Source: an uncultured Spirochaetia bacterium | GTDB taxonomy: Bacteria > Oederibacteriota > PGYV01 > Palsa-1178 | NCBI GenBank assembly: GCA_964443355.1 | Contig: CAYUDX010000014.1 | Location: 17,992-81,991 of the forward strand | Length of the DNA: 64,000 nucleotides | Reading direction: 5' to 3' | Part shown: piece after piece, positions 12,878 to 60,979 of the stretch | How positions within the stretch are numbered: position 1 is the first letter of the stretch | Layout of the letters: each line of letters begins with the position of its first letter | Notes under the pieces: model-generated | The model's database searches: none | Told to the model about the DNA's origin: nothing | Seen by the model: the letters and a program-made list of their open reading frames with translations, nothing else | Position numbers and translations under genes: made by a program

Positions 12878-14197
12878 TCAACGGGCCTCGGGCAAATTCT
12901 GCATGGACTGGTTCTGGTCAAGCCACGCTTTAAGCTTGGCGTTTCCGGGGTCGAGCTCAAGGGCCTTTGAGTAAGCCCTGTAAGCAAGCTCCCTCCTGCC
13001 GGTATTAAGGAAACATGCGCCCAGCCCCATGTAAGCGGGGGCGTATCCCCTGTATTTTTTTACGCATTCGGCAAATTCCGGGATGGCTTTCCCGAAATCC
13101 AGCTTGTACAGGTAATCATAACCGCGTTTATACGCCTCGATGCCCGCTTTTTTGTCCTCAAAAAAGTGCTTCTCCGACGTCCCCGCGAATTTCCCGGTTA
13201 TGGATATCCTGTTCGAGACGCCGAGGTCGGCGTAAGGCACCATCACGTAATCCAGTTCTATGTTAAGGTCCTTCGACGCGGTCAGCCTGTATCCAAGCCC
13301 GGCCGTGAGCCCTGCCAGCGCGCCAAGGTCCTCGCCGAACTTGTAACCAAGCCTAACCGCTATCGAGTGGTATTTGTTCAGCGTCCAGTATTTCTCGGCC
13401 CCGAGGTGGACGCTCGCAGATTGTTCTATGGGATAATAAAGGATGTCAAGGGCCGCGGTGGTGTCGTTCTCGTTGTAAACAAAGGTCCCTTCATCTGAGA
13501 AAGGAAGCATCAGGTTCTCCATGGAGAACCTGTAACCGAACCCGAGCTTCAGGTCGACCGGAAGCGATGGCCTGTTATTGGCAACCCCGAGGTTCTCGGC
13601 AACAAAGCCGACGGAATAATTTTCATACCTTGGATAAAAAAACGAGCCGATATTGAACCCGAACCCGCCGCCGCCGTCGGAGACTATCTTTTCGGATATA
13701 AGGTTTGCCGACAGCCCGAAGGAGAGGTCGGATACCGCGCTGTCATTGCCAATGATGTCGGATAATTTCTTGGCGTATGCAAGCGTTATGTCAAGGTCGC
13801 TCGCGGTCACGGAATTCGTGGTCAGTTCATAGTCCCCTGTGCCGGGGGCTTCTATTGTCTGGGTAAGGCTGCCGCCGTTGACAAAAACGCTGTAGGCCGC
13901 AAGCGTGCCGAAGCCCTGGATGGGCAGGGCGTAGGCCAGGTATTCATAATTGACGTCAAGCAGCCAGGCGGAATGCATGAGGCATATCTGGTTGCGGGTG
14001 AGCTGTGAGAGGCCCGCCGGGTTCCAGTAAACGGCATTGACGTCGTCGGCCACTCCCACGAACGCCTCGCCCATTCCCGCGGGCCTTGCGCCCTCGGAAA
14101 GCTTGAGGAAATTGGCGGAGGTCTCGCCCGCGCCAAGGACCGTGGAATAAACCGCGAATAAAACAAACGCGGCGAATAAAATGGCTTTTTTTCGCAT
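12878..14197 (-). CDS. PorV/PorQ-family beta-barrel with C-terminal TPR extension (439 aa; start corrected from 14410)
   Basis: AGGAG RBS before MRKKAILFAAF; canonical FLKLSEGARPAGMGEAF..DDVNAVYWNPAGL; barrel ends near ISITGKF, followed by TPR (AYMGLGACF..AYSKALELDP). Confidence 0.8.
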   Translation of the reverse strand: MRKKAILFAAFVLFAVYSTVLGAGETSANFLKLSEGARPAGMGEAFVGVADDVNAVYWNPAGLSQLTRNQICLMHSAWLLDVNYEYLAYALPIQGFGTLAAYSVFVNGGSLTQTIEAPGTGDYELTTNSVTASDLDITLAYAKKLSDIIGNDSAVSDLSFGLSANLISEKIVSDGGGGFGFNIGSFFYPRYENYSVGFVAENLGVANNRPSLPVDLKLGFGYRFSMENLMLPFSDEGTFVYNENDTTAALDILYYPIEQSASVHLGAEKYWTLNKYHSIAVRLGYKFGEDLGALAGLTAGLGYRLTASKDLNIELDYVMVPYADLGVSNRISITGKFAGTSEKHFFEDKKAGIEAYKRGYDYLYKLDFGKAIPEFAECVKKYRGYAPAYMGLGACFLNTGRRELAYRAYSKALELDPGNAKLKAWLDQNQSMQNLPEAR

Positions 14198-14231
14198 CAA
14201 CCCGTTTTCTCCTGATTTGATTTTATGCTTT

Positions 14232-14260
14232 ATCTTACCAGTAAAAAAACCTAAAATCAA
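14232..14260 (-). promoter_or_regulatory. Sigma-70 promoter of the PorV-TPR/LacI/PorV/ECF cluster
   Basis: TTGATT-N17-TAAGAT; the -35 overlaps an inverted repeat TAAAATC-aattg-GATTTTA (14252-14270). Confidence 0.5.
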
Positions 14261-14304
14261 TTGGATTTTAACCGCTGGATCAAACACATACCCCGCCGGG
14301 GTTT

Positions 14305-14823
14305 TTAATAATGTATTACCGAAAATATTTTGTTGGGGGAGAGTTTTTCCCTGCCCTTTAAAAAATCCAGCTCTATTACGAACGCCAGCTCGCTTATTGC
14401 GGCGCCGCATTTTTCAACGAGTTTTACAACGGCCTGCGCAGTGCCGCCGGTGGCCAGGACGTCGTCTATTATAAGCACATTGTCCCCTTTTGAAAGGGCG
14501 TCGGCGTGTATCTCAAGCGAGTCCGTGCCGTATTCAAGGGCGTATTCCTGGGAATAAACCTTCCTGGGCAGCTTGCCCGGCTTGCGCACCGGTATGAGTG
14601 AGGCCTTAAGCTTGTAGGCCAGCGGCGCGCCGAGAAGGAACCCGCGCGCTTCCATGCACACCACGGCGTCTATCTTTTTTCCCTTGTATCTTTTGGCGAG
14701 AGTGTCGATGAGCTCGGCAAAAAGCTTTTTATCCTTGAGCACCGGGGTAAAATCCTTGAAAATGACCCCTTTTTTCGGGAAATCAGGAACGTCCAGAACC
14801 GCTTTTTTCAATTCTTTTTCCAT
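14305..14823 (-). CDS. apt: Adenine phosphoribosyltransferase
   Basis: VPDFPKKGVIFKD, EARGF, VRKPGKLP, EYGTD, PRPP-binding IIDDVLATGGT. Confidence 0.97.
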   Translation of the reverse strand: MEKELKKAVLDVPDFPKKGVIFKDFTPVLKDKKLFAELIDTLAKRYKGKKIDAVVCMEARGFLLGAPLAYKLKASLIPVRKPGKLPRKVYSQEYALEYGTDSLEIHADALSKGDNVLIIDDVLATGGTAQAVVKLVEKCGAAISELAFVIELDFLKGREKLSPNKIFSVIHY

Positions 14824-14884
14824 ATCATCCGCCTCGTTATTATTTTATTTATTTCCTTTTGCGTTAGAATACAAAACCCGAAAA

Positions 14885-14972
14885 ATGCGGGCGTGTGAGA
14901 CTTTTTTAGAACCCCGAGCACATCTTTTAAATTCGGGCGCGGCCAGCCTAAAAAAGGCTCACACGCCCACAT
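14885..14972 (-). other. Long intergenic stem-loop (25-bp arms)
   Basis: atgcgggcgtgtgagacttttttag (14885-14909) is the reverse complement of 14948-14972 at 23/25 positions. Confidence 0.75.
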
Positions 14973-14983
14973 GCCTGAAAAAG

Positions 14984-16081
14984 CTACATGTTTTCCTTGT
15001 TCTTCATCAGGTAACGAAGTTTTTTTATGGCAATGGTCTCTATCTGTCTTATCCTTTCCCTGGTAAGCCTGAGCTTCAGCCCTATTTCCTCGAGGGTCAG
15101 GATATTGCGGTTGGAAAGGCCGAACCTGCTCATTATGACTTCCTGCTCCTTGGGTTTTAATTTCGCGATGAGCTCGAGCATTTTTTCCTTCTTGTCCTTT
15201 TCAAAAAATTCGTCGTCGGGTTTTACTATGGATTCGTCCTCGATGGTGTCCTTGAGCGTCCTTGCGGAATCAGAATCCTCGTTCTCGTATTCCAGGTCGA
15301 GCGACTTGGGCGCCTTTATGATGTTGAGTATCTCGTTGAGCTTCATCGGCTCGATCTTGAGCTTCCTGGCCATGTCGTCCCTTTCAGGGAAGCGGCCCTT
15401 GTCCTTCATCTCTTTTTCTATGAGCTTCAGGTACTTGTGGTAAATGTCAAGTATGTGCACCGGTATGCGTATGGTGTTTTTCTGGTTGGCTATGGCGCGG
15501 TTTATCGACTGCTTGATCCACCAGGTGCCGTAAGTGGAAAAACGGAAACCCAGCTCGGGCTTGAACTTCTCGACCGCCTTCATCAGGCCGATGTTGCCCT
15601 CCTCGATGAGGTCTATTATGGGAACGCCGAGATATTCATATTTTTTCGCCATCTTTACGACGAGCTTCAGGTTTGCCTTGATGATGCTGGCGCGCGCCGC
15701 CACATCGCCTTTCTTGGCCTTGCGCACGAGGTCCTTTTCCTCTTTTTCCGTGAGGATCTTTTCGTCCCTTATCTCGTCGAAATAAAGCATGAGGGAGTCT
15801 TTCGACGCGGAACCCCTGCCGTCGGCTCTGGAAGGCCTGGGCTTCTCGGCCTCGTCGGTGTCTCCCTCTTCCGCTCCGGCAAGTTCCTGCATTCCCTCGG
15901 GATCTTCGGCTTCTTCGCTTTCTTTTGCCGGCTTATCCGGCTGCCGGTCCTCGGCTTCCTCGGTCAGCGCCTCGGAAACCGGCCGCTTTACCCCGGCGTC
16001 CGCGGCCGGTGATGTTTTTTTCGCTGTTTTCCTGGCATTTTTTTTCGGTGCAAACTTTTTCCTGGATTTTTTCTTTTTCAT
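14984..16081 (-). CDS. Sigma-70 family factor (RpoD/RpoS-like; regions 1.2-4, no recognisable region 1.1)
   Basis: ANLKLVVKMAKKY, DLIEEGNIGLMKAVEKF, RFSTYGTWWIKQSINRAIA, TIRIPVH, LTLEEIG..TRERIRQIE. Confidence 0.9.
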   Translation of the reverse strand: MKKKKSRKKFAPKKNARKTAKKTSPAADAGVKRPVSEALTEEAEDRQPDKPAKESEEAEDPEGMQELAGAEEGDTDEAEKPRPSRADGRGSASKDSLMLYFDEIRDEKILTEKEEKDLVRKAKKGDVAARASIIKANLKLVVKMAKKYEYLGVPIIDLIEEGNIGLMKAVEKFKPELGFRFSTYGTWWIKQSINRAIANQKNTIRIPVHILDIYHKYLKLIEKEMKDKGRFPERDDMARKLKIEPMKLNEILNIIKAPKSLDLEYENEDSDSARTLKDTIEDESIVKPDDEFFEKDKKEKMLELIAKLKPKEQEVIMSRFGLSNRNILTLEEIGLKLRLTRERIRQIETIAIKKLRYLMKNKENM

Positions 16082-16093
16082 ATTTCCCCTCTG

Positions 16094-16381
16094 TTATCCC
16101 GGGTAATGAAGAATGTAAAAATCCCCGTATTTGTTCTCGTCCGGAATCGCGCTGCTTTTTACCGCCTCGACATTAAAAAAAACCCCGGGGCCGGTTATCT
16201 CTTCCGTAAATTTATCCATCGAAGCCCCGTCGCCGAAAATTTCCAGCTCCACGCCGCCGTCGGGCATGTTCATGACGTAGCCTCTGAGCCCGAGCGCGTG
16301 CGCTGCCCTGCTGCAGTAATACCTGTAGCCCACTCCCTGCACCATGCCCGTTACAATAATGCGGCGGCCGCTGTTTTCCAT
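16094..16381 (-). CDS. acyP: Acylphosphatase (95 aa; start corrected from 16495)
   Basis: VTGMVQGVGYRY and GLRGYVMNMPDGGVE signatures. Confidence 0.92.
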   Translation of the reverse strand: MENSGRRIIVTGMVQGVGYRYYCSRAAHALGLRGYVMNMPDGGVELEIFGDGASMDKFTEEITGPGVFFNVEAVKSSAIPDENKYGDFYILHYPG

Positions 16382-16385
16382 TATG

Positions 16386-17153
16386 TCACTGCAGGTATGA
16401 TATTCCAAAGACAAAATATGACTGCAGGAAATCCCCGATCTCCTCGCGCTGGAAGACATTTGAGATGTTGCGTATGTAAAATTCAACGTCCACATTATAG
16501 TTCAGGCTCATCTTTACGCCAACGTTGAACCTGTCCTCGTCATATTCCCCGACCAGCAGGACCGTGTCGGCCACGACCTTCGAAACATCCGCAACAAAAC
16601 CGGTGTAGTCGTGGCCAAGCGTTTTTTCGACGCCCATGCTGAAGCTCATGTCGGATATTTTTTTTGAGGCCACCGAGTAAAGCGCAAAATTCCCCCATGG
16701 CGACCTTTCGAACATGGATAGCGGGAATTTTTTCACCCCGACGGCCAGGCTCACAAAATATTCCTCTTCCTTTAGCGCCCGGCACTTAAAATCAAAATTT
16801 GTTGACTCGGAAATGGCGTCGCAAAAATTCACGAAAGAATTCCAGAAGCCCTGCACCGTCTCGGTGGTCTTATAGTGGTCCACCATGTCCGAGATCTGCC
16901 CGAAATTCACGACCGTCCCCGCTTCCATAAAATCAAGAAAACCGTAGTTGAACTTGAATATATAAGTGTCCATATGGAGCCCGAGCGTGAACTGTTTGTC
17001 GGCAAGAACGTACGCGGCGGGGTTGTCTATATATCCGCTGGTGCCCGAAGCCGTAGGCATAAGAAGAAAATGATTTACATCGACTGTTTCCGCGGATAAG
17101 ACGGAACAAAAAGCGGCCAAAACAAGGATGGTCAGTATTGCTTTTTTTCTCAC
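16386..17153 (-). CDS. YjbH-like outer-membrane beta-barrel protein (GTG start)
   Basis: AAGGAG RBS before GTG; signal peptide; MPTASGTSGYIDNPAAYVL N-terminal motif; amphipathic strands; C-terminal FGISYLQ. Confidence 0.55.
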   Translation of the reverse strand: MRKKAILTILVLAAFCSVLSAETVDVNHFLLMPTASGTSGYIDNPAAYVLADKQFTLGLHMDTYIFKFNYGFLDFMEAGTVVNFGQISDMVDHYKTTETVQGFWNSFVNFCDAISESTNFDFKCRALKEEEYFVSLAVGVKKFPLSMFERSPWGNFALYSVASKKISDMSFSMGVEKTLGHDYTGFVADVSKVVADTVLLVGEYDEDRFNVGVKMSLNYNVDVEFYIRNISNVFQREEIGDFLQSYFVFGISYLQ

Positions 17154-17264
17154 CGGCGGTTTCTCCTTTGAACTTTTGCGTTGCTTTTGTCCGGCTTCCG
17201 TCGATCTGCTCGTTTGTTGCTTAATCACAGACGTCCAAAAAATCTATAGCTTTTAAAATTTTTA

Positions 17265-17320
17265 TGGTCGGGACGACTGGGTTCGAACCAGCGGCCTCTC
17301 GCACCCCAAGCGAGTGCGCT
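17265..17320 (-). pseudogene. Truncated tRNA-Pro(GGG) copy: 3' 56 nt, D-stem 3' side to CCA
   Basis: Identical to 17445-17500; lacks the 5' acceptor strand and D-arm 5' half. Confidence 0.9.
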
Positions 17321-17444
17321 GACGGCGATGTCAATGCCCGGGCGTTTTACTTGCAATAATTGAATCGCCGGCGTCCGTGAAAACTCTAATTTCTTCCTTA
17401 ATTTCATTTTCACGGACTACCAAAAACATAACTTATACATTTTA

Positions 17445-17520
17445 TGGTCGGGACGACTGGGTTCGAACCAGCGGCCTCTCGCACCCCAAGCGAGTGCGCT
17501 ACCAACTGCGCTACGCCCCG
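17445..17520 (-). tRNA. tRNA-Pro(GGG)
   Basis: CGGGGCGTAGCGCAGTTGGTAGCGCACTCGCTTGGGGTGCGAGAGGCCGCTGGTTCGAACCCAGTCGTCCCGACCA; 76 nt cloverleaf, anticodon GGG, encoded CCA. Confidence 0.97.
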
Positions 17521-17671
17521 ACCTATCAATTTAACCTGTCGTCTTACTTCGCATCATGATGTCGGTAGTGTCCGTGGAAATCCTTATATTTTCCTTAATT
17601 TCATTTCCACGGGCTACGCCCCGACCTCATTAATGTATGTTTATTATTCTATGTCGGGGCGTGTCCGGAAA
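17496..17671. repeat. 176-bp direct repeat of 18122-18297 (tRNA 5' end plus upstream region)
   Basis: Offset 626 nt; only 2 mismatches (17635 and 17639). Confidence 0.9.
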
Positions 17672-17866
17672 AGACTTATAAATCTTCCTTAATTTCTTTT
17701 CCGGGCTACGCCCCGATAACGATTTTCCGTCCTTTGTCCTGTTCTAAGTCCTGTTCTAAAGAAAAAAAATGGTCGGGCTGACGGCGATGTCAAAATCCCG
17801 GCCGATTTACTTGCAATAATTAAAAAATCGCCGGCGTCCCGAAAATCTATAGCCCTTAAAATATTA

Positions 17867-17921
17867 TGGTCGGGGCGACTGGATTCGAACCAGCGGCCTC
17901 TTGGTCCCGAACCAAGCGCGC
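17867..17921 (-). pseudogene. Truncated tRNA-Pro(CGG) copy: 3' 55 nt
   Basis: Identical to 18071-18125; the 5' part is replaced by a hairpin unit. Confidence 0.9.
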
Positions 17922-18070
17922 CGCAAACAATGTCAATCCAACCAGTCGTTTTACTTCACATATCAAAATTGCTTGCGTCCGTGAAAATCCTGATATTTTC
18001 ATCTATCTATTTTTCACGGACTACCAACAACCTGGAGCGCGTACGTTTGTCTTTGCTTATCATAAAAAAA

Positions 18071-18146
18071 TGGTCGGGGCGACTGGATTCGAACCAGCGG
18101 CCTCTTGGTCCCGAACCAAGCGCGCTACCAACTGCGCTACGCCCCG
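18071..18146 (-). tRNA. tRNA-Pro(CGG)
   Basis: CGGGGCGTAGCGCAGTTGGTAGCGCGCTTGGTTCGGGACCAAGAGGCCGCTGGTTCGAATCCAGTCGCCCCGACCA; 76 nt, anticodon CGG. Confidence 0.97.
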
Positions 18147-18431
18147 ACCTATCAATTTAACCTGTCGTCTTACTTCGCATCATGATGTCGGTAGTGTCCG
18201 TGGAAATCCTTATATTTTCCTTAATTTCATTTCCACGGGCTACGCCCCGACCTCATTAATTTATATTTATTATTCTATGTCGGGGCGTGTCCGGAAAGAG
18301 TCTAATAGAATTTCCTCTATTTCTCTTTCCGGACTACGCCCACGGCCTTTATACTTTATTTTCTTAAAAACCCGCATTATTTTTAACGGAACAAAATTTT
18401 ACAGGAATACCCGCATATTTTCAAGTCTTTT

Positions 18432-18800
18432 TTACAACACAGCCTGGTTTTCAAGCAAATGCATTGCCTCGACTATCTCGTTCCTCACGTCTTTCAGCTT
18501 GTCCATGGTGAGCTTTTCCTCTATGCCGAAAAGTTCCATCTGTTCGCCGTCGATCTCCGCAAGGAGCTCCTTTAATTTTTTCTGGGCCCCGCTTATCTTA
18601 TATTCCTCGACATAAAGCAGTTTTTTTATGAGGAATATGACGTCGATATCCTTCTTGGTGTATTTGCGCTGGCCGACCCTGTTCTTTATGGGCTGTAACT
18701 CCTCGAAATTCTGCTCCCAGAACCTGATGACCGACTCCCTGACGCCCGTCAGCTGGGCCACTTCCCTTATCGGATAATACTTTTTCTCCCTGACATCCAT
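18432..18800 (-). CDS. MerR-family transcriptional regulator
   Basis: YYPIREVAQLTGVRESVIRFWEQNF..GQRKYTKKDI; position upstream of tRNA-Pro matches the common merR-tRNA-Pro synteny. Confidence 0.92.
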   Translation of the reverse strand: MDVREKKYYPIREVAQLTGVRESVIRFWEQNFEELQPIKNRVGQRKYTKKDIDVIFLIKKLLYVEEYKISGAQKKLKELLAEIDGEQMELFGIEEKLTMDKLKDVRNEIVEAMHLLENQAVL

Positions 18801-18812
18801 TTTTAGCCCCCT

Positions 18813-19817
18813 TTAATCCACAAATTCCTGCTCTGATTTCGCGGGCCTGTTCATAAGGTCCCTGACCGAATCACGCGGAGATTTGCCTTTATAGAGCGCC
18901 TCATACACTTCCCTGCATATGGGCATGTCCACCTTATATTTTTTCGCGAGGCTGTGGACAGAAAGGGTCGTTTTCACGCCTTCCGCCACCATTACCATGC
19001 CCCCGAGTATCTCTTCGATCTTCCTGCCGCGGCCGAGCTGTTCGCCGACGAACCTGTTGCGGCTGTGTTTTGATTCGCATGTCACCACAAGGTCCCCGAT
19101 GCCGGAGAGCCCGTAAAACGTGTCGCCGGATGCCCCCATGGCCACTCCGAGTCGCCTCATTTCGGCCATCCCCCTTGTGATAAGCGCGGCTTTTGTATTG
19201 TCCCCCATATCAAGCCCGTCAAGGATCCCGGCTGCTATGGCAATGACGTTCTTCACGCTTCCGCCGAGCTCGACCCCGATTATGTCCTGCCTGCTGTACG
19301 TCCTGAAATAATTTTTATTGAAGAACATGGACCGCACCGCCTCGGATAGGGCCGTGTCCTTTGAGGCCGCCACGACCGTCGTGGGCACTTTTCTCCCGAC
19401 TTCCTCGGCGTGGGACGGCCCGGAAAGAACAGCCACCTTCACCCTGCCAAGAACGTCCTTTATCACCTGCGACATCGTCATGAGGGTCTTCTGCTCGATG
19501 CCCTTTGTGACGCTTATGAATACCCTGGACCTGTAGTCCATTTTTTTTATCCTTAAAAGCAGGCTCCTCATAAAATGGGAAGGCTGCGCCAGCACTATGT
19601 ATGACGAGGCGTCCATGGCGGTTTTCAGGTCGGATGTTATAATTATTTCCTCGGGTATCTTCACGCCCTTCAGGAACTTTATATTTTCCCTTTTACTTTC
19701 CAGGACCCCGGCGTAATCCGCGAAAAATTCCCAGAGCGTCACCTCATGGCCCCGTTCGCTCAAAAGAATGGCAAGGGCCGTGCCCCAGCCTCCGGCCCCG
19801 AGTACCGTTACTTTCAT
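18813..19817 (-). CDS. gpsA: NAD(P)H-dependent glycerol-3-phosphate dehydrogenase
   Basis: VLGAGGWGTALA, LSGPSHAEEV, GGSVKNVIAIAAG, GIGDLVVTC, SRNR, AEGVKT. Confidence 0.97.
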   Translation of the reverse strand: MKVTVLGAGGWGTALAILLSERGHEVTLWEFFADYAGVLESKRENIKFLKGVKIPEEIIITSDLKTAMDASSYIVLAQPSHFMRSLLLRIKKMDYRSRVFISVTKGIEQKTLMTMSQVIKDVLGRVKVAVLSGPSHAEEVGRKVPTTVVAASKDTALSEAVRSMFFNKNYFRTYSRQDIIGVELGGSVKNVIAIAAGILDGLDMGDNTKAALITRGMAEMRRLGVAMGASGDTFYGLSGIGDLVVTCESKHSRNRFVGEQLGRGRKIEEILGGMVMVAEGVKTTLSVHSLAKKYKVDMPICREVYEALYKGKSPRDSVRDLMNRPAKSEQEFVD

Positions 19818-20473
19818 TTTTTTACCTCTTTCCGCGGCGCCGTCTCTTTCCCGTTATTTGACGCCCCGAATTCAAACTTATTCTCGGTGCCGTCAAGCAG
19901 CCTTTTTATATTGTCCTTGTGCTTGTATATGACGAAAGCCGCCACAATTATGGATGTTATCTGCACCAGGCCGAGAAAACCGCCCTCTCCGTAATTAAGG
20001 ACGAACACCGGCAGTAATATTGCGGCCAGCACAGAGCCGGCGGATATATACCTGAAAAACAGCACTGTGACGACAAAAACTATGAATGCGGTCGTGGTCG
20101 CGGCCGGTGACAGCGCGAGGAAAACCCCGAGAGCGGTGGCCACTCCCTTGCCTCCCTTGAACTTCAGGAATATGGTGAACGTGTGGCCAAGCACCGCGGC
20201 TATTCCCGCTATTACCCCCACCCACGGGAACTTTGCCCATAAAACCGAACCCAGCAGGAAAACAGGCACAAACCCCTTGAGCGCGTCAAGGACAAGCACG
20301 ATAACGAACCATTTCATCCCGAGGACCCTTTTTACGTTAGTCGCGCCGATATTGCCGCTTCCCACGGTGCGTATGTCGATATTCTTCCTTGATTTTACTA
20401 TGAGGTACCCGGTGGGTATGGCGCCGATAAAATAGGGAATTACAAGCGCCGATATCAGTGCCAGAATCCACAT
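19814..20473 (-). CDS. plsY: Glycerol-3-phosphate 1-O-acyltransferase
   Basis: DIRTVGSGNIGATN, LDALKG, GHTF..FKGGKGVAT, KHKDNIKRLLDGTE. Confidence 0.96.
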   Translation of the reverse strand: MWILALISALVIPYFIGAIPTGYLIVKSRKNIDIRTVGSGNIGATNVKRVLGMKWFVIVLVLDALKGFVPVFLLGSVLWAKFPWVGVIAGIAAVLGHTFTIFLKFKGGKGVATALGVFLALSPAATTTAFIVFVVTVLFFRYISAGSVLAAILLPVFVLNYGEGGFLGLVQITSIIVAAFVIYKHKDNIKRLLDGTENKFEFGASNNGKETAPRKEVKK

Positions 20474-20486
20474 GCAAATGGCCTCC

Positions 20487-21824
20487 TTATTTTTCTTCCT
20501 TCTGCTGCCTGGGCTTGATCTTTAACTTGAGCGGGGACCCCTCGAAACCGAAAGATTCCCTGAGCTTATTCTCAAGATAACGCATATATGAAACGTCCAA
20601 TTTTTCCTTTTTGTTCACAAATAAGGCGAAAGTCGGCGGGGCCGTTTCCACCTGCGAGATATAATATATCTTAACGTCCCCTCTTTTCGAAAAAACAGCC
20701 TTTTCATGGATCGCCTGCTGGAATACTTTATTGAGCAAAGAGGTCTTGATTCTGGAATTATACTGTTTTTCAACATAAAAAACAACATTTAATAATTCCT
20801 CGAGCCCCTTCGATTTAAGGGCCGAAACATAGACTATAGGCGCAAAGGCCACGAATTTTGCGATGTCCCTGATATATTCCGTGAACTGCAACTTGACCTC
20901 GTCCCGCCGGGATTGCTCAACCAGGTCCCATTTGTTCGCGACGATGACGACGGCCTTGAGGTTCTCAACTGCGTAGCCCAGGAGTTTCTTGTCCATCTCC
21001 ATGAGACCGTCGATGCAGTCCACCACAAGCAGGGCCATGTCTCCCCTCTTTATGTTCATAAAGGCGCGGCCGACGGAATACTCCTCGGCTTTCATTTTTA
21101 TGTTCTTCCTCTTCTTGACTCCGGCGGTGTCTATCAGAAGCAGTTTTTTACCCTCATACTCCACAAGGGTGTCGATTGAATCGCGCGTCGTGCCCGGTAT
21201 CTCGGTCACGATCGAGCGCTCTTCCCTGACCAGCGCGTTAAAAAGCGAGGACTTGCCGACGTTCTCCCTGCCGACGATGGCCACTTTTGTGACCGTGTCG
21301 TCTTCGGCCCCGGATTTTAACTCCTCTATGCCGCCGGTTATATAATCAAGCAGGTCGTCAAACCCGTATGAATGGGCCGCCGACACCGGGAACACCGTGT
21401 CGACTCCCAGGTTATGGAACTCGTAGGCGTTTATTTCCTTGGACGGCGTGTCGACCTTGTTGGCCACCACCACAAAAGGCGTCCCGCTTTTTTTTATGAA
21501 ATCAAAGACTTCCCTGTCCTCGGGCACAATGCCCGCCACGACATCAACGACAAAGAGCACGAGGTCCACTTCCTTGATGACGGCTTTCACTATCTTGACG
21601 ACCTCGTTCTTTATGCGGTCCTGCTCGTTGAAAAGAAGGCCGCCCGTGTCGATGAGCGTGAATTTCTTTCCCAGCCATTCCGCCTCGCCGTAGATCTTGT
21701 CCCGCGTCACCCCGGGGAAATCGTCGACAATTGATTTCTGCCTGTTGATGAGCTTGTTGAATATGGAGGATTTTCCGACATTTTCCCTGCCGGCGATAAG
21801 GACGGTGTATTCTGTGCTTTTCAT
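20487..21824 (-). CDS. der: Ribosome biogenesis GTPase Der/EngA (start corrected to ATG 21824)
   Basis: Two GTPase domains (GRENVGKSS twice, DTGG/DTAG, NKVD/NKWD) and a KH-like C-terminus (PPTF..GFEGSP). Confidence 0.96.
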   Translation of the reverse strand: MKSTEYTVLIAGRENVGKSSIFNKLINRQKSIVDDFPGVTRDKIYGEAEWLGKKFTLIDTGGLLFNEQDRIKNEVVKIVKAVIKEVDLVLFVVDVVAGIVPEDREVFDFIKKSGTPFVVVANKVDTPSKEINAYEFHNLGVDTVFPVSAAHSYGFDDLLDYITGGIEELKSGAEDDTVTKVAIVGRENVGKSSLFNALVREERSIVTEIPGTTRDSIDTLVEYEGKKLLLIDTAGVKKRKNIKMKAEEYSVGRAFMNIKRGDMALLVVDCIDGLMEMDKKLLGYAVENLKAVVIVANKWDLVEQSRRDEVKLQFTEYIRDIAKFVAFAPIVYVSALKSKGLEELLNVVFYVEKQYNSRIKTSLLNKVFQQAIHEKAVFSKRGDVKIYYISQVETAPPTFALFVNKKEKLDVSYMRYLENKLRESFGFEGSPLKLKIKPRQQKEEK

Positions 21825-21930
21825 TTTTTTCTCCAGCTGTTTAAAAAGTAAAAATTTAAAATTAATAACCAATAAGTAAAACAGGAACGCCCACTGGTCC
21901 CGACTTTTAACTTTTAAATTTTTTTAAAAC

Positions 21931-21972
21931 AAAGACGTGTCGGGCGTTTTGTTTCGCGCCCGACACGTCTTT
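21931..21972. terminator. Perfect 16-bp stem-loop upstream of der (terminator/attenuator-like)
   Basis: aaagacgtgtcgggcg / cgcccgacacgtcttt; on the minus strand the stem ends in TTT and is followed by GTTTT. Confidence 0.6.
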
Positions 21973-21981
21973 TATATTGAT

Positions 21982-22010
21982 ATTATATGGATTACCGCCC
22001 GATTTTGCAA
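21982..22010 (-). promoter_or_regulatory. Sigma-70 promoter upstream of der
   Basis: TTGCAA-N17-TATAAT. Confidence 0.7.
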
Positions 22011-59788: not shown

Positions 59789-60979
59789 ATGTCTTTCATG
59801 GACAAAAAAAAGATGCTCGGACATTTTATACTTACAATATCGCTTTTTATGGCGGCTTCCGTGCTTTCAGACGCTTTTGTGAACATTTACCTGTGGCGGC
59901 TGAGGGCCGATTACCTGCCAATTACGATGTATATGCTGGCCTGCTACGCCACGGTCCCGGTGGTGTTTTACCTGTGCGGATATATAGGGATGAAAATAGA
60001 CCGCACCGCCATATATATAATAGGAATATTCTGCTACGTGGCGTTTTATTTTATGGTGCTGATATTCCGCGAGCACATTACGGATCACGTTTTGCTATGG
60101 GGATTTATCAAGGGGCTTGCAATGGGGTTTTACTGGTTCGGTTACCATATCCTGACCTTTGATTTCACCACGACACACGACAGGGACTCTTTTTACGCGA
60201 ATACTTCCATAATATCCGGCGCCTGCTCGCTGGCAGGCCCCATGCTTGCCGGCTTTATCATAACCGCCTTCCCGTCGTTCTCGGGATATTACATAATCTT
60301 CGCATGTTCCGCCGTGCTTTTCATATCCTCGGCGGTTCTTTCATATTCAATGAAATCCACCCCGATAAAAAAGGCCTACAAGATAGAGGATCTCATCTTT
60401 TCGTCGGACGTAAAATGGCGCGATACAATGATCGCCTATTTTTTTCTCTCGGGCAGGGACGCCATATCGATATTCCTCATCTCCATCCTGGTCTTTAAAT
60501 CCACAGGCAACGAGTTCACCCTGGGAAAATATTCGATGATAGTGGCACTGGCCACAGTCTCCACCGCCTACATACTGGGAAAATTTTCAAGGCCCTCCAC
60601 CAGGGACGGTTTTGTCCTGACCGGCGCCGTGATATCGTTCCTCATGTCCTTCCTGCTCATTTACAGGATAAACATTTACACGCTTCTGGCCTACGGCATA
60701 ATCGGCGCAGTCGCGGATTACCTGGTCAGGATACCGATATCCGCGCACGCTCTCGACGTCATCAGCCTTGACGCCAACGCCAGCGAGAGGAAGATGGAAT
60801 ACATAGTGGCCCGCGACGTGCCCGTGGCCATGGGAAGGATATCCATGCTCGCGGTATTCGTGATGTTCTTAAGGTACATGCCCGCGTCGGGCATAAAGGC
60901 CATAATACTCCTCATCTCGGCCTTTCCATTCGGCGTTTATTTTTTCATGAGGAACAAAAAAAACGCGGATAAAAAATAA
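59789..60979 (+). CDS. MFS transporter
   Basis: About 12 hydrophobic segments in two halves; GLAMGFYWFG..RDSFYA..LAGPMLAGFII motif. Confidence 0.85.
   Translation: MSFMDKKKMLGHFILTISLFMAASVLSDAFVNIYLWRLRADYLPITMYMLACYATVPVVFYLCGYIGMKIDRTAIYIIGIFCYVAFYFMVLIFREHITDHVLLWGFIKGLAMGFYWFGYHILTFDFTTTHDRDSFYANTSIISGACSLAGPMLAGFIITAFPSFSGYYIIFACSAVLFISSAVLSYSMKSTPIKKAYKIEDLIFSSDVKWRDTMIAYFFLSGRDAISIFLISILVFKSTGNEFTLGKYSMIVALATVSTAYILGKFSRPSTRDGFVLTGAVISFLMSFLLIYRINIYTLLAYGIIGAVADYLVRIPISAHALDVISLDANASERKMEYIVARDVPVAMGRISMLAVFVMFLRYMPASGIKAIILLISAFPFGVYFFMRNKKNADKK

Follow-up and report, generated by a model that had tools for sequence, protein, structure and literature searches.

A partial tRNA-Pro(CGG) gene that reads as a truncated copy of its clade's structured tRNA-Pro leader and tRNA

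The stretch of DNA analysed here, a window of 64,000 nucleotides (nt) from contig CAYUDX010000014.1 of an uncultured Spirochaetia bacterium (assembly GCA_964443355.1), carries a compact array of proline tRNA genes and related modules on its minus strand. Within it lies the subject of this study: a partial tRNA-Pro(CGG) gene at 17867-18028, which we call D. All coordinates are positions in this window, the tRNA strand is the minus strand, and arrows (as in 18020->17921) are read 5' to 3' on that strand. Followed in this direction, the array consists of a promoter, the leader modules U2 and U1, tRNA-Pro(CGG), a 42-nt spacer, D, a further-deleted module named C, the leaders U2' and U1', tRNA-Pro(GGG), the sibling copy of D behind tRNA-Pro(GGG), named A, and an outer-membrane-like open reading frame (ORF) (Table 1). 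Both ARAGORN and Rfam place two intact tRNA genes in the array, tRNA-Pro(GGG) at 17445-17520 and tRNA-Pro(CGG) at 18071-18146, and the surrounding genes are housekeeping ones (MerR, gpsA, plsY, der and an rpoD-like gene). The array was also seen on two independent metagenome contigs, one from the Joint Genome Institute (JGI; L070) that is 100% identical over 1338 nt, and one of 71.8 kb from another sample (L086) that differs only in having T7 where the window has T8; since both reproduce the array, it is real and no assembly artefact. As to other contigs, L116 is collapsed across a 176-bp repeat and is without the whole CGG unit, and L120 is joined to other organisms at tRNA sequence, so that caution is due when contigs are compared across the tRNA genes.

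D is made of two parts. Its 3' part (17920->17867) equals nt 23-76 of the intact tRNA-Pro(CGG) (18146->18071) at 54/54 positions, and so keeps the 3' strand of the D-stem, the anticodon arm, the variable loop, the T arm, the 3' acceptor strand and CCA. This tRNA copy is preceded by a 100-nt block (18020->17921) that holds two hairpins, the first joined to the second by AC and the second to the tRNA copy by GG. The stem of hairpin 1 is composed of G-C, U-A and then CCGTGAAAA/TTTTCACGG, and the loop of hairpin 2 holds AAGTAAAACG and ATTGAC. The foot of hairpin 1, GTTGGTAG, contains GTAG, the constant 5' foot of every hairpin-1 module. Where the tRNA has CGGGGCG, D has GACAAAC within an A-rich stretch; the 5' acceptor strand is thus missing, and the best partner for D's 3' acceptor strand, AGGUUG, offers 5 bp at most. 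The sequence-only reading that preceded this analysis had suspected a decayed remnant of the tRNA 5' end upstream of the block, and for this the evidence is weak: the foot matches the tRNA for 4 nt beyond the fixed GTAG (p about 0.016 by chance) and CGTACGCGC, to the left of D, can serve as the 5' strand of the D-stem, but nothing of the 5' acceptor strand is left. An equally good reading of the flank is that of a decayed leader copy, AGGTtGttG-GTAG against AGGTCGGGGCGTAG. A small peptide was also considered, encoded by an 18-codon ORF (MISKDKRTRSRLLVVREK; 18063->18007) that runs from the spacer into the 5' arm of hairpin 1. It was rejected for lack of conservation in the related contig L073, where the ATG is absent and indels occur.

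Table 1. Features of the tRNA-Pro array, from the promoter to module A.
Feature	Position	Strand	Remarks
Sigma-70-type promoter, TTGAAA-17-TAAAAT	18396..18424	-	consensus scan, 10/12 match
Leader module U2	18253..18347	-	homologues in relatives
Leader module U1	18147..18252	-	same as module upstream of tRNA-Pro(GGG)
Intact tRNA-Pro(CGG), encoded CCA, then T8	18071..18146	-	ARAGORN; Rfam tRNA 71.1 bits
Spacer and left flank of D: T8, A-rich stretch AAAGACAAA, CGTACGCGC	18029..18070	-	~85-90% identity to L073
Foot GTTGGTAG	18021..18028	-	equals tRNA nt 15-22
Hairpin 1 of D, stems TCCGTGAAAA/TTTTCACGGA	17978..18021	-	12-bp stem, 23-nt A/G-rich loop
Hairpin 2 of D	17923..17977	-	arms GCAAGCAAT (17977-17969) / ATTGTTTGC (17931-17923), one G.U pair
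Copy of tRNA-Pro(CGG) nt 23-76	17867..17920	-	partial Rfam tRNA match, 25.2 bits
C module	17770..17866	-	hairpin 1 collapsed, hairpin 2 intact (CGGCGAT/ATCGCCG)
Second unit: U2', U1', intact tRNA-Pro(GGG)	17445..17718	-	acceptor stem with G5.U68
A module: spacer, GGTAG, hairpin 1, hairpin 2 (CGGCGAT/ATCGCCG), tRNA-Pro(GGG) nt 23-76	17265..17444	-	151.5 bits to model R1

With this anatomy, D could be imagined as an interrupted but functional tRNA gene, containing an intron or split in two, that yields a second tRNA-Pro(CGG): the insert is flanked by D-stem strands able to pair, CGCGC...GCGC, and the anticodon arm, T arm and CCA are all intact. This is hardly credible. The GACAAAC that stands in place of the 5' acceptor strand refutes cis-splicing, neither ARAGORN nor Rfam calls a full tRNA here, and an intact tRNA-Pro(CGG) lies 150 nt upstream. 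An Rfam search of 14000-22000 at E<=1 returned the two tRNAs, the partial tRNA match and a chance viral pseudoknot only, with no group I intron or other intron family, and we rejected the intron-containing or split gene on these grounds.

Instead, the block has a clear counterpart in the clade itself. The tRNA-Pro genes of one order in candidate division FCPU426 have one to three leader modules ahead of them. Members of this order carry tRNA-Pro(CGG) and tRNA-Pro(GGG) in tandem in a common neighbourhood (MerR, tRNAs, the outer-membrane-like gene, acylphosphatase and sigma-70). Each module starts with ..GGGGCGTAG, which is tRNA nt 1-10 and ends in GTAG, continues with a 10-12-bp stem around a purine-rich loop of ~22 nt (..AAGGAAG..) and ACAC, and ends with a 3'-acceptor-like strand, either GCCCCGAC or the 4-nt-shorter CTACCGAC, and an AT-rich tail with AAGTAA and ATTGA(C/T)A, after which the tRNA begins. 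A pattern search picked up modules of this plan in 9 genomes of the order, from families f1, f6 and f10, a variant that the pattern missed occurs in f5 too, and in the rest of the phylum the same search gave 3 matches in other families, all of them GC-rich sequence without the module. The leaders of our array follow this plan. U2 consists of a copy of tRNA nt 1-10 (..GGGCGTAG), hairpin 1 (TCCGGAAAGAG/CTCTTTCCGGA) and then CAC+GCCCCGAC, and is predicted to form one ~20-bp hairpin, in which an A bulges out and whose base mimics the acceptor stem (z = -8.4). U1 consists of GGTCGGGGCGTAG, hairpin 1 (CCGTGGAAAT/ATTTCCACGG), ACA, CTACCGAC and then AAGTAAGACGACAGGTTAAATTGATA, and its strand CTACCGAC complements the tRNA D-loop GTTGGTAG. 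We also considered a kink-turn at GTAG/ACAC; the sequence is unfit for one, and ACAC pairs with G-U-(A bulge)-G-U, which makes the U2 type one long hairpin. In G002-like populations, the conserved promoter and the first leader are separated by an (AACAG)n microsatellite whose length varies (L073:320-450; L076:1930-2000); this genome does not have it.

When aligned with MAFFT, D, A and C are colinear with U1 plus tRNA and with the leader-plus-tRNA units of the same-genus genomes G001 and G002, from GTAG through hairpin 1, AC(A/G)C, AAGTAA and ATTGA(C/T) to the anticodon arm; relative to U1 plus tRNA, D is short of ~16 nt, from tRNA position -3 to about 13. A covariance model built from D, A and the D module of L073 only gave scores of 91-93 bits to U1 plus tRNA and 30-77 bits to the leader-plus-tRNA-Pro units of relatives. 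To judge by its sequence, then, the supposed insert is the clade's own structured tRNA-Pro leader, to which the final 54 bases of the tRNA are joined. D-type copies themselves are rare: the covariance-model search found no further one in 24 genomes of the order, and pattern scans of GTDB genomes and JGI metagenomes together with neighbour-gene look-ups gave them only in this species (three contigs) and in L073. The D module is missing from G001 and G002 despite the same tRNAs. In contig L114, from the same sample as L073, a leader ends in GGTTGGTTGGATTGATA, the closest match to the hairpin-2 loop of D.

This homology also bears on the possibility of a small mobile hairpin element, akin to repetitive extragenic palindromes (REPs) with their REP-associated tyrosine transposases (RAYTs) or to IS200/IS605 insertion sequences, or a miniature mobilised by an integrase, which would have inserted independently 3' of GTAG in two tRNA-Pro D-loops. 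GTAG does stand directly before the stem in 24/24 distinct modules, as in REPs, the junction G22|C23 is the same in the CGG and GGG copies, and so are the length and organisation of the block. Yet GTAG is tRNA G7-U8-A9-G10 or G19-U20-A21-G22, so the foot is explained by tRNA origin, and the block is homologous to a tRNA-Pro leader that is vertically inherited across an order; both 'targets' would moreover need to be extra tRNA copies that later lost the same 5' part. Nor do the usual companions of such an element turn up. Blastn at E<=10 with the 173-nt module as query returned, from all of the 2.88-Mb assembly (98.6% complete), only four related modules, each of them at this locus; the Y1 (HUH) transposase family PF01797 had no match in the genome, with matches in control genomes; and the only two tyrosine recombinases (PF00589), both Xer-like, lie on contigs C2 and C5 and none on the contig of the array. 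Neither the block nor the flank matched phage and plasmid collections. An independently inserted element is therefore very improbable, and a REP/RAYT or IS200-like one was rejected for want of dispersed copies and of a Y1 transposase. The scar of an integrated element was discarded likewise: D does show the direct repeat of the tRNA 3' part (54/54 to nt 23-76) expected of an attR-type fragment, but the contig has no integrase, the ~150-nt interval is leader-like and holds no conserved ORF, and phages and plasmids gave no match.

The comparison of D with A suggests how the two copies came to be alike. As the sequence-only reading had noted, both are present with the same junction and the same block of ~100 nt (the GGG copy at 17444->17265), both contain the loop motifs AAGTAAAACG and ATTGACAT, and hairpin 2 differs between them (GCAAGCAAT/ATTGTTTGC in D, CGGCGAT/ATCGCCG in A). 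Its description of this stem as fully re-sequenced but still pairing holds for the pairing and not for 'fully', given that 4/9 pairs of hairpin 2 are the same in A and D. A further 4/9 are changed on both sides, from C-G, G-C, G-C and G-C in A to A-U, A-U, G.U/A-U and A-U, of which one is G.U here and A-U in L073; the remaining pair (1/9) is a C.U mismatch in A and C-G in D, so that none is broken in D. In hairpin 1, the stems of A and D have 0/22 differences and the loops 11/24 (46%; Fisher p = 2.4e-4). The same reading had also proposed a parallel D-loop insertion in the two tRNA genes, and this part is not supported: the 100-nt block is homologous end to end to the native leader, and the derived characters are common to D and A. 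Relative to U1, both have the GTGAAAA stem, ACGC, AAGTAAAACG, ATTGACAT and the junction at nt 23, and since they share these states, one origin followed by duplication of a unit of ~626 bp is simpler than two parallel insertions. The tRNA parts of D and A, each of which matches its own neighbour, would most simply owe this to local gene conversion. Indeed, a block of 176 bp is identical between both units, and U1 together with tRNA nt 1-22 does not differ between the two isoacceptors (17445-17626, 18071-18252). The acceptor stem of tRNA-Pro(GGG) pairs a 5' CGGGGCG with a 3' CGTCCCG (G5.U68), as if an original CGGGACG had been overwritten by gene conversion, and leader copies with CGGGACG are present in contig L114.

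That the hairpins are under selection for secondary structure over sequence, as had been surmised from the first inspection, is borne out by compensated stems, by loops that diverge where the stems do not, by G.U pairs with almost no A.C, and by covariation of hairpin 1 across genera. Covariation statistics bear this out: over 24 distinct modules (14 distinct arm pairs from six genera), 98.4% of hairpin-1 positions pair, compared with 65% when the arms are shuffled (0/5000), and each of the first nine positions shows 2-4 Watson-Crick pair types. In the D/A-type sequences (n=3), 98.6% of cells pair, compared with 35-49% with slid partners, and 1/500 shuffles reaches 98.6%. An alignment of 31 sequences fitted to the model has 92% of cells paired compared with <=46% with slid partners, and 23/25 pairs change on both sides, but this alignment leans towards its model, and its helix-2 columns are unreliable in U-type rows, where the 3' arm is placed at varying D-loop positions, and are not relied on. 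The leader is complementary to the tRNA itself, too: the U1 strand, CTACCGAC here or CTGCCGGC in L074, pairs with the D-loop GTTGGTAG, and A-U <-> G.U exchanges are seen there. The non-canonical pairs are telling in their asymmetry: on the tRNA strand, hairpin 1 has G.U in 15 cells (>=7 independent), A.C in 0 (p about 0.016), and U.U at one position in one genus. Wobble that favours one strand in this way points to a single-stranded nucleic acid with the sense of the tRNA, which in a transcription unit is most simply RNA, and because it follows the tRNA strand, palindrome correction purely at the level of DNA is disfavoured. That the hairpins are constrained on pairing rather than on sequence, and on the tRNA-sense strand, is thus supported. 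The loops of hairpin 1 are purine-rich and nearly always contain GGA (AAGGAA, GAGGAA or CAGGA) across families, for example at 17989-18010, 18187-18207 and 18301-18322. The genome has a CsrA gene (G000:C12:63257-63415), and contact of a CsrA type, or one that mimics a Shine-Dalgarno sequence, with these loops is conceivable.

The second D-type copy, in L073, allows for the same comparison with a related lineage. There too the module follows tRNA-Pro(CGG). Between the two copies there are 0 changes in the hairpin-1 stems and 0 in the 54-nt tRNA part, and the loops differ; the sole change in hairpin 2 keeps the pairing, with GCAAACAAT in L073 giving A-U where our copy has G.U. Over ~110 nt of loops and flank, 10 substitutions and 5 indel columns separate the two, and stems and tRNA part set against the rest give p = 0.012. 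At the same time, L073 has three tandem C-type modules after tRNA-Pro(GGG), at the place where this genome has A, and in our own C module the tRNA remnant is CCCGACCA only, followed by T8. The array is both constrained and in flux.

This flux is what an explanation of the modules as non-functional debris would build on, and we regard it as the strongest rival, if a less probable one than retention for a function. Palindromic leaders would provoke slippage, unequal crossing-over and template switching, leaving the partial tRNA copies D, A and C; the stems would then be kept up by quasipalindrome correction of the DNA, and the tRNA part by gene conversion from the neighbouring gene. The dynamic array (1 to 3 leaders among close relatives, three tandem C modules in L073), the existence of collapsed hairpins and of an 8-nt tRNA stub, and the loss of D's 5' acceptor strand all fit with this, as do the 176-bp block that is identical between units and the G5.U68 pair, which looks like a conversion scar. 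So does the confinement of D-type copies to two lineages, and the tRNA genes for Val, Leu, Lys and Arg in this genome also have partial self-copies. However, correction by template switching is strand-symmetric and leaves the excess of G.U over A.C unexplained. The hairpins of A and D, moreover, have no identical donor, and yet their hairpin-1 stems are identical at 22/22 positions while the loops differ at 46%. Finally, D is 93% identical in L073, left flank included, as against 88% nucleotide identity for the outer-membrane gene next to the array and 60% at its 4-fold sites, with the proviso that this contig may be chimeric.

We favour a different explanation, to which we would give a probability of about one half: D would be a home-grown truncated paralogue of the unit 'leader plus tRNA-Pro(CGG)', kept as a cis-acting RNA structure module of the pre-tRNA-Pro transcript. 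It would have arisen when the leader became fused to tRNA nt 23-76 downstream of the intact gene, with A as its sister behind tRNA-Pro(GGG) and C as a further deletion; from the one origin would have followed the duplication of the ~626-bp unit and then the conversion of the tRNA part by its neighbour. Building on the anatomy, the leader homology, the structural constraint and its strand specificity, we infer that D may be transcribed and processed and may have a function. The promoter at 18396..18424 is the sole strong one that the consensus scan finds in the array, it lies upstream of all modules, and the same promoter precedes the tRNA-Pro genes in G001, G002, L073, L074 and L114; with one such start ahead of U2, modules and tRNAs would probably share a polycistronic pre-tRNA. 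A promoter within the modules was rejected, considering that the scan gives only the upstream one and that hand-picked -35/-10 candidates (GGACAC, and TTGACA near the tRNA +1) have no consistent spacing across relatives.

What such a transcript might look like is suggested by folding predictions, which ignore tRNA tertiary structure and modification. In these, the minimum-energy fold of the U1-plus-tRNA precursor is an 'expanded tRNA', more stable than the enforced cloverleaf by 5-9 kcal/mol in each of three species or units: the leader strand GGUCGGGGCG pairs with the 3' acceptor strand of the tRNA, hairpin 1 follows after GUAG, a second hairpin is formed by CUACCGAC with the D-loop GUUGGUAG, and then come the anticodon arm and the T arm. 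The leader's copy of the acceptor strand would thus replace the real 5' strand. D, in turn, is predicted to fold into hairpin 1, hairpin 2, the anticodon arm, the T arm and an unpaired 3' strand that ends in CCA, and it resembles a tRNA with a D-loop insertion because it corresponds to the expanded fold minus the looped-out real 5' part. We posit that D could be a retained variant locked in the alternative fold, and that the modules might shape pre-tRNA folding and nuclease processing, be it entry of an RNase P or RNase III type or insulation. In this regard, the conserved GGU before +1 can pair with the ACC of the 3' end, and pairing between leader and RCCA hinders the catalytic complex of RNase P (PMC9433436). 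An unusual RNase P was rejected, a normal type-A RNase P RNA being present in the genome. This RNA match (L102; G000:C2:2179-2657; type A, 195.7 bits) is 479 nt long against a model of 367 positions, implying sizeable insertions. On paper, the free 3' strand of D could pair in trans with U1's 'orphan' 5' strand; we set this idea aside for want of support.

Several observations weigh against this explanation. The T8 directly after tRNA-Pro(CGG) could end transcription before D, and the consensus scan of the array finds no separate promoter for D. Between our D and that of L073, stems alone set against loops give p = 0.29, which is not significant; L073 is probably chimeric at the tRNA genes, its left part being G002-like, and the yardstick of 4-fold sites is only indicative; and one A.C mismatch occurs in the leader:D-loop pairing of that contig. 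D-type modules are known from this species and this one other contig only. Not every copy is maintained, either, as decayed modules occur in relatives, such as one in L074 with the 3' arm of hairpin 1 deleted. To this must be added the simplifications already mentioned of the energy predictions. Runs of 7-8 T straight after the encoded CCA are found in many tRNA-Pro genes and modules of the genus (window 18063-18070 and 17762-17769; relatives L019, L073 and L087). Such a run could be a terminator-like signal for which the tRNA serves as the hairpin, and it bears on whether D would be transcribed by read-through.

If D is transcribed, it could perhaps act in trans, an idea that takes up the tRNA-mimic RNA of the sequence-only reading: released as a stable, CCA-ended RNA, it would be a decoy or regulator of some factor that recognises the anticodon arm and T arm, such as a tRNA sensor, an anticodon nuclease or an enzyme of tRNA modification. 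At 54/54 positions, the part of D with these arms and CCA is identical to the real tRNA, and every truncated copy agrees with the isoacceptor next to it. Hairpin 2 and CCCCGACCA persist in the C-type modules, which occur threefold in L073, and the D module is conserved in that related lineage. We nonetheless consider a tRNA mimic of this kind unlikely. No acceptor stem is possible, which makes maturation by RNase P and aminoacylation improbable, and for this same reason the class of the tRNA-like domain of transfer-messenger RNA (tmRNA) and of mascRNA was rejected, the presence of T arm and CCA notwithstanding. A T-box decoy falls away too, as the genome has no T-box riboswitch to fool. Gene conversion would account just as well for the identical tRNA part, and the module is absent from the same-genus G001 and G002, which have the same tRNAs.

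Going a step further, we could speculate that all these modules belong to a self-mimicking leader family, in which the copies of the acceptor strands and, in the U1 type, the complement of the D-loop drive the 'expanded tRNA' fold and so make the maturation of tRNA-Pro, perhaps also that of tRNA-Leu and others, switchable. Factors that bind the GGA loops might then be in control, and D, A and C could be CCA-ended tRNA-like RNAs with functions of their own. We hold this wider idea to be rather doubtful. Other tRNA genes of this genome are surrounded by partial self-copies of their own (L103, G000:C19:55422-58545; G000:C13:~63750-64700; G000:C19:~60150-60630; G000:C32:~20200-20980). tRNA-Leu(TAG) has two 100-nt tandem units, each with tRNA nt 1-27 plus a hairpin; genomes of the same genus conserve this Leu module at 88-89%, and two other families have its inner hairpin as well. 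Upstream of tRNA-Val(GAC) stands a 5' copy, and downstream of it are two 3' pseudo-copies that bear inserts in the D-loop and T-loop, the upstream copy of tRNA-Lys(CTT) has the motif GCTCGC.ATAGCGCCTCAGAG in common with the Val copies, and tRNA-Arg(ACG) has a copy of its 3' end behind a GTAG-containing hairpin.

The fragment is a member of a family of structured modules, conserved and covarying, for which the tRNA's own leader and acceptor strands supplied the material, and no such family is found in Rfam. Should the modules act as RNA, they would be a new cis element controlling the folding or processing of pre-tRNA in an uncultured phylum of peat bogs, and the truncated copies would be candidates for tRNA-derived RNAs that are encoded as such. 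Should they not, they would be a clear example of palindromic leaders generating arrays of tRNA pseudogenes, and such arrays can mislead both tRNA annotation and the detection of genomic islands.

How, then, does D compare with systems already described? Like the split and intron-containing tRNA genes of Nanoarchaeum, the archaeal bulge-helix-bulge (BHB) introns and the bacterial group I introns in anticodon loops, it has a tRNA arm, here the D-arm, interrupted by ~100 nt of structured sequence; unlike them it is bacterial, shows no BHB or group I signature, has no 5' exon, and has an intact gene alongside. With the tRNA mimics (the tRNA-like domain of tmRNA, mascRNA, viral tRNA-like structures and YrlA) it shares a T arm, a 3' acceptor strand and CCA within a larger predicted RNA. 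Those, however, keep the acceptor stem, whereas D, a putative RNA, is without the 5' strand and has a true anticodon arm. The REPs, bacterial interspersed mosaic elements (BIMEs) with RAYTs, and the ends of IS200/IS605 elements likewise have an imperfect palindrome after GTAG with stems that covary between copies; here, in contrast, there is one locus, no Y1 transposase was found, GTAG is tRNA-derived, and it is on the transcribed strand of the tRNA that G.U is preferred to A.C.

The usual reading of a partial tRNA gene in a bacterium is that a phage or island integrated there and left a scar; displaced 3' fragments of the attR type, reportedly left by integrated elements (Williams 2002; Islander), are reviewed in PMC9897764. 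The 54-nt direct repeat of 100% identity downstream of an intact gene and the tandem, ever-shorter 3' ends of the C modules do recall such fragments. Here, however, ~150 nt lie between gene and fragment, with no ORF or integrase and with homology to the gene's own leader, and 5' fragments are found upstream as well. Fragments of tRNA genes are known to come from integrated elements and from CRISPR (PMC9897764), and neither fits an interval that consists of 150 nt of leader-like sequence.

This leaves the structured leaders. Those of pre-tRNAs and pre-rRNAs, and the stems between leader and trailer, guide processing by RNase III and RNase P, and the modules described here resemble them in their place between promoter and tRNA, in their long, stable and covarying helices, one of which mimics the acceptor stem, and in the possible GGU:ACC pairing. 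They differ in repeating the tRNA's acceptor strands letter for letter, in carrying, if of the U1 type, a complement of its D-loop, in being modular and repeated, in a predicted alternative fold that replaces the real 5' strand, in the truncated leader with the 3' two-thirds of the tRNA that stands downstream, and in having no Rfam family. D and its siblings are therefore best filed among the structured leader and spacer elements of pre-tRNAs, where they stand out by being built from the strands of their own tRNA and by having spawned truncated paralogues of it.

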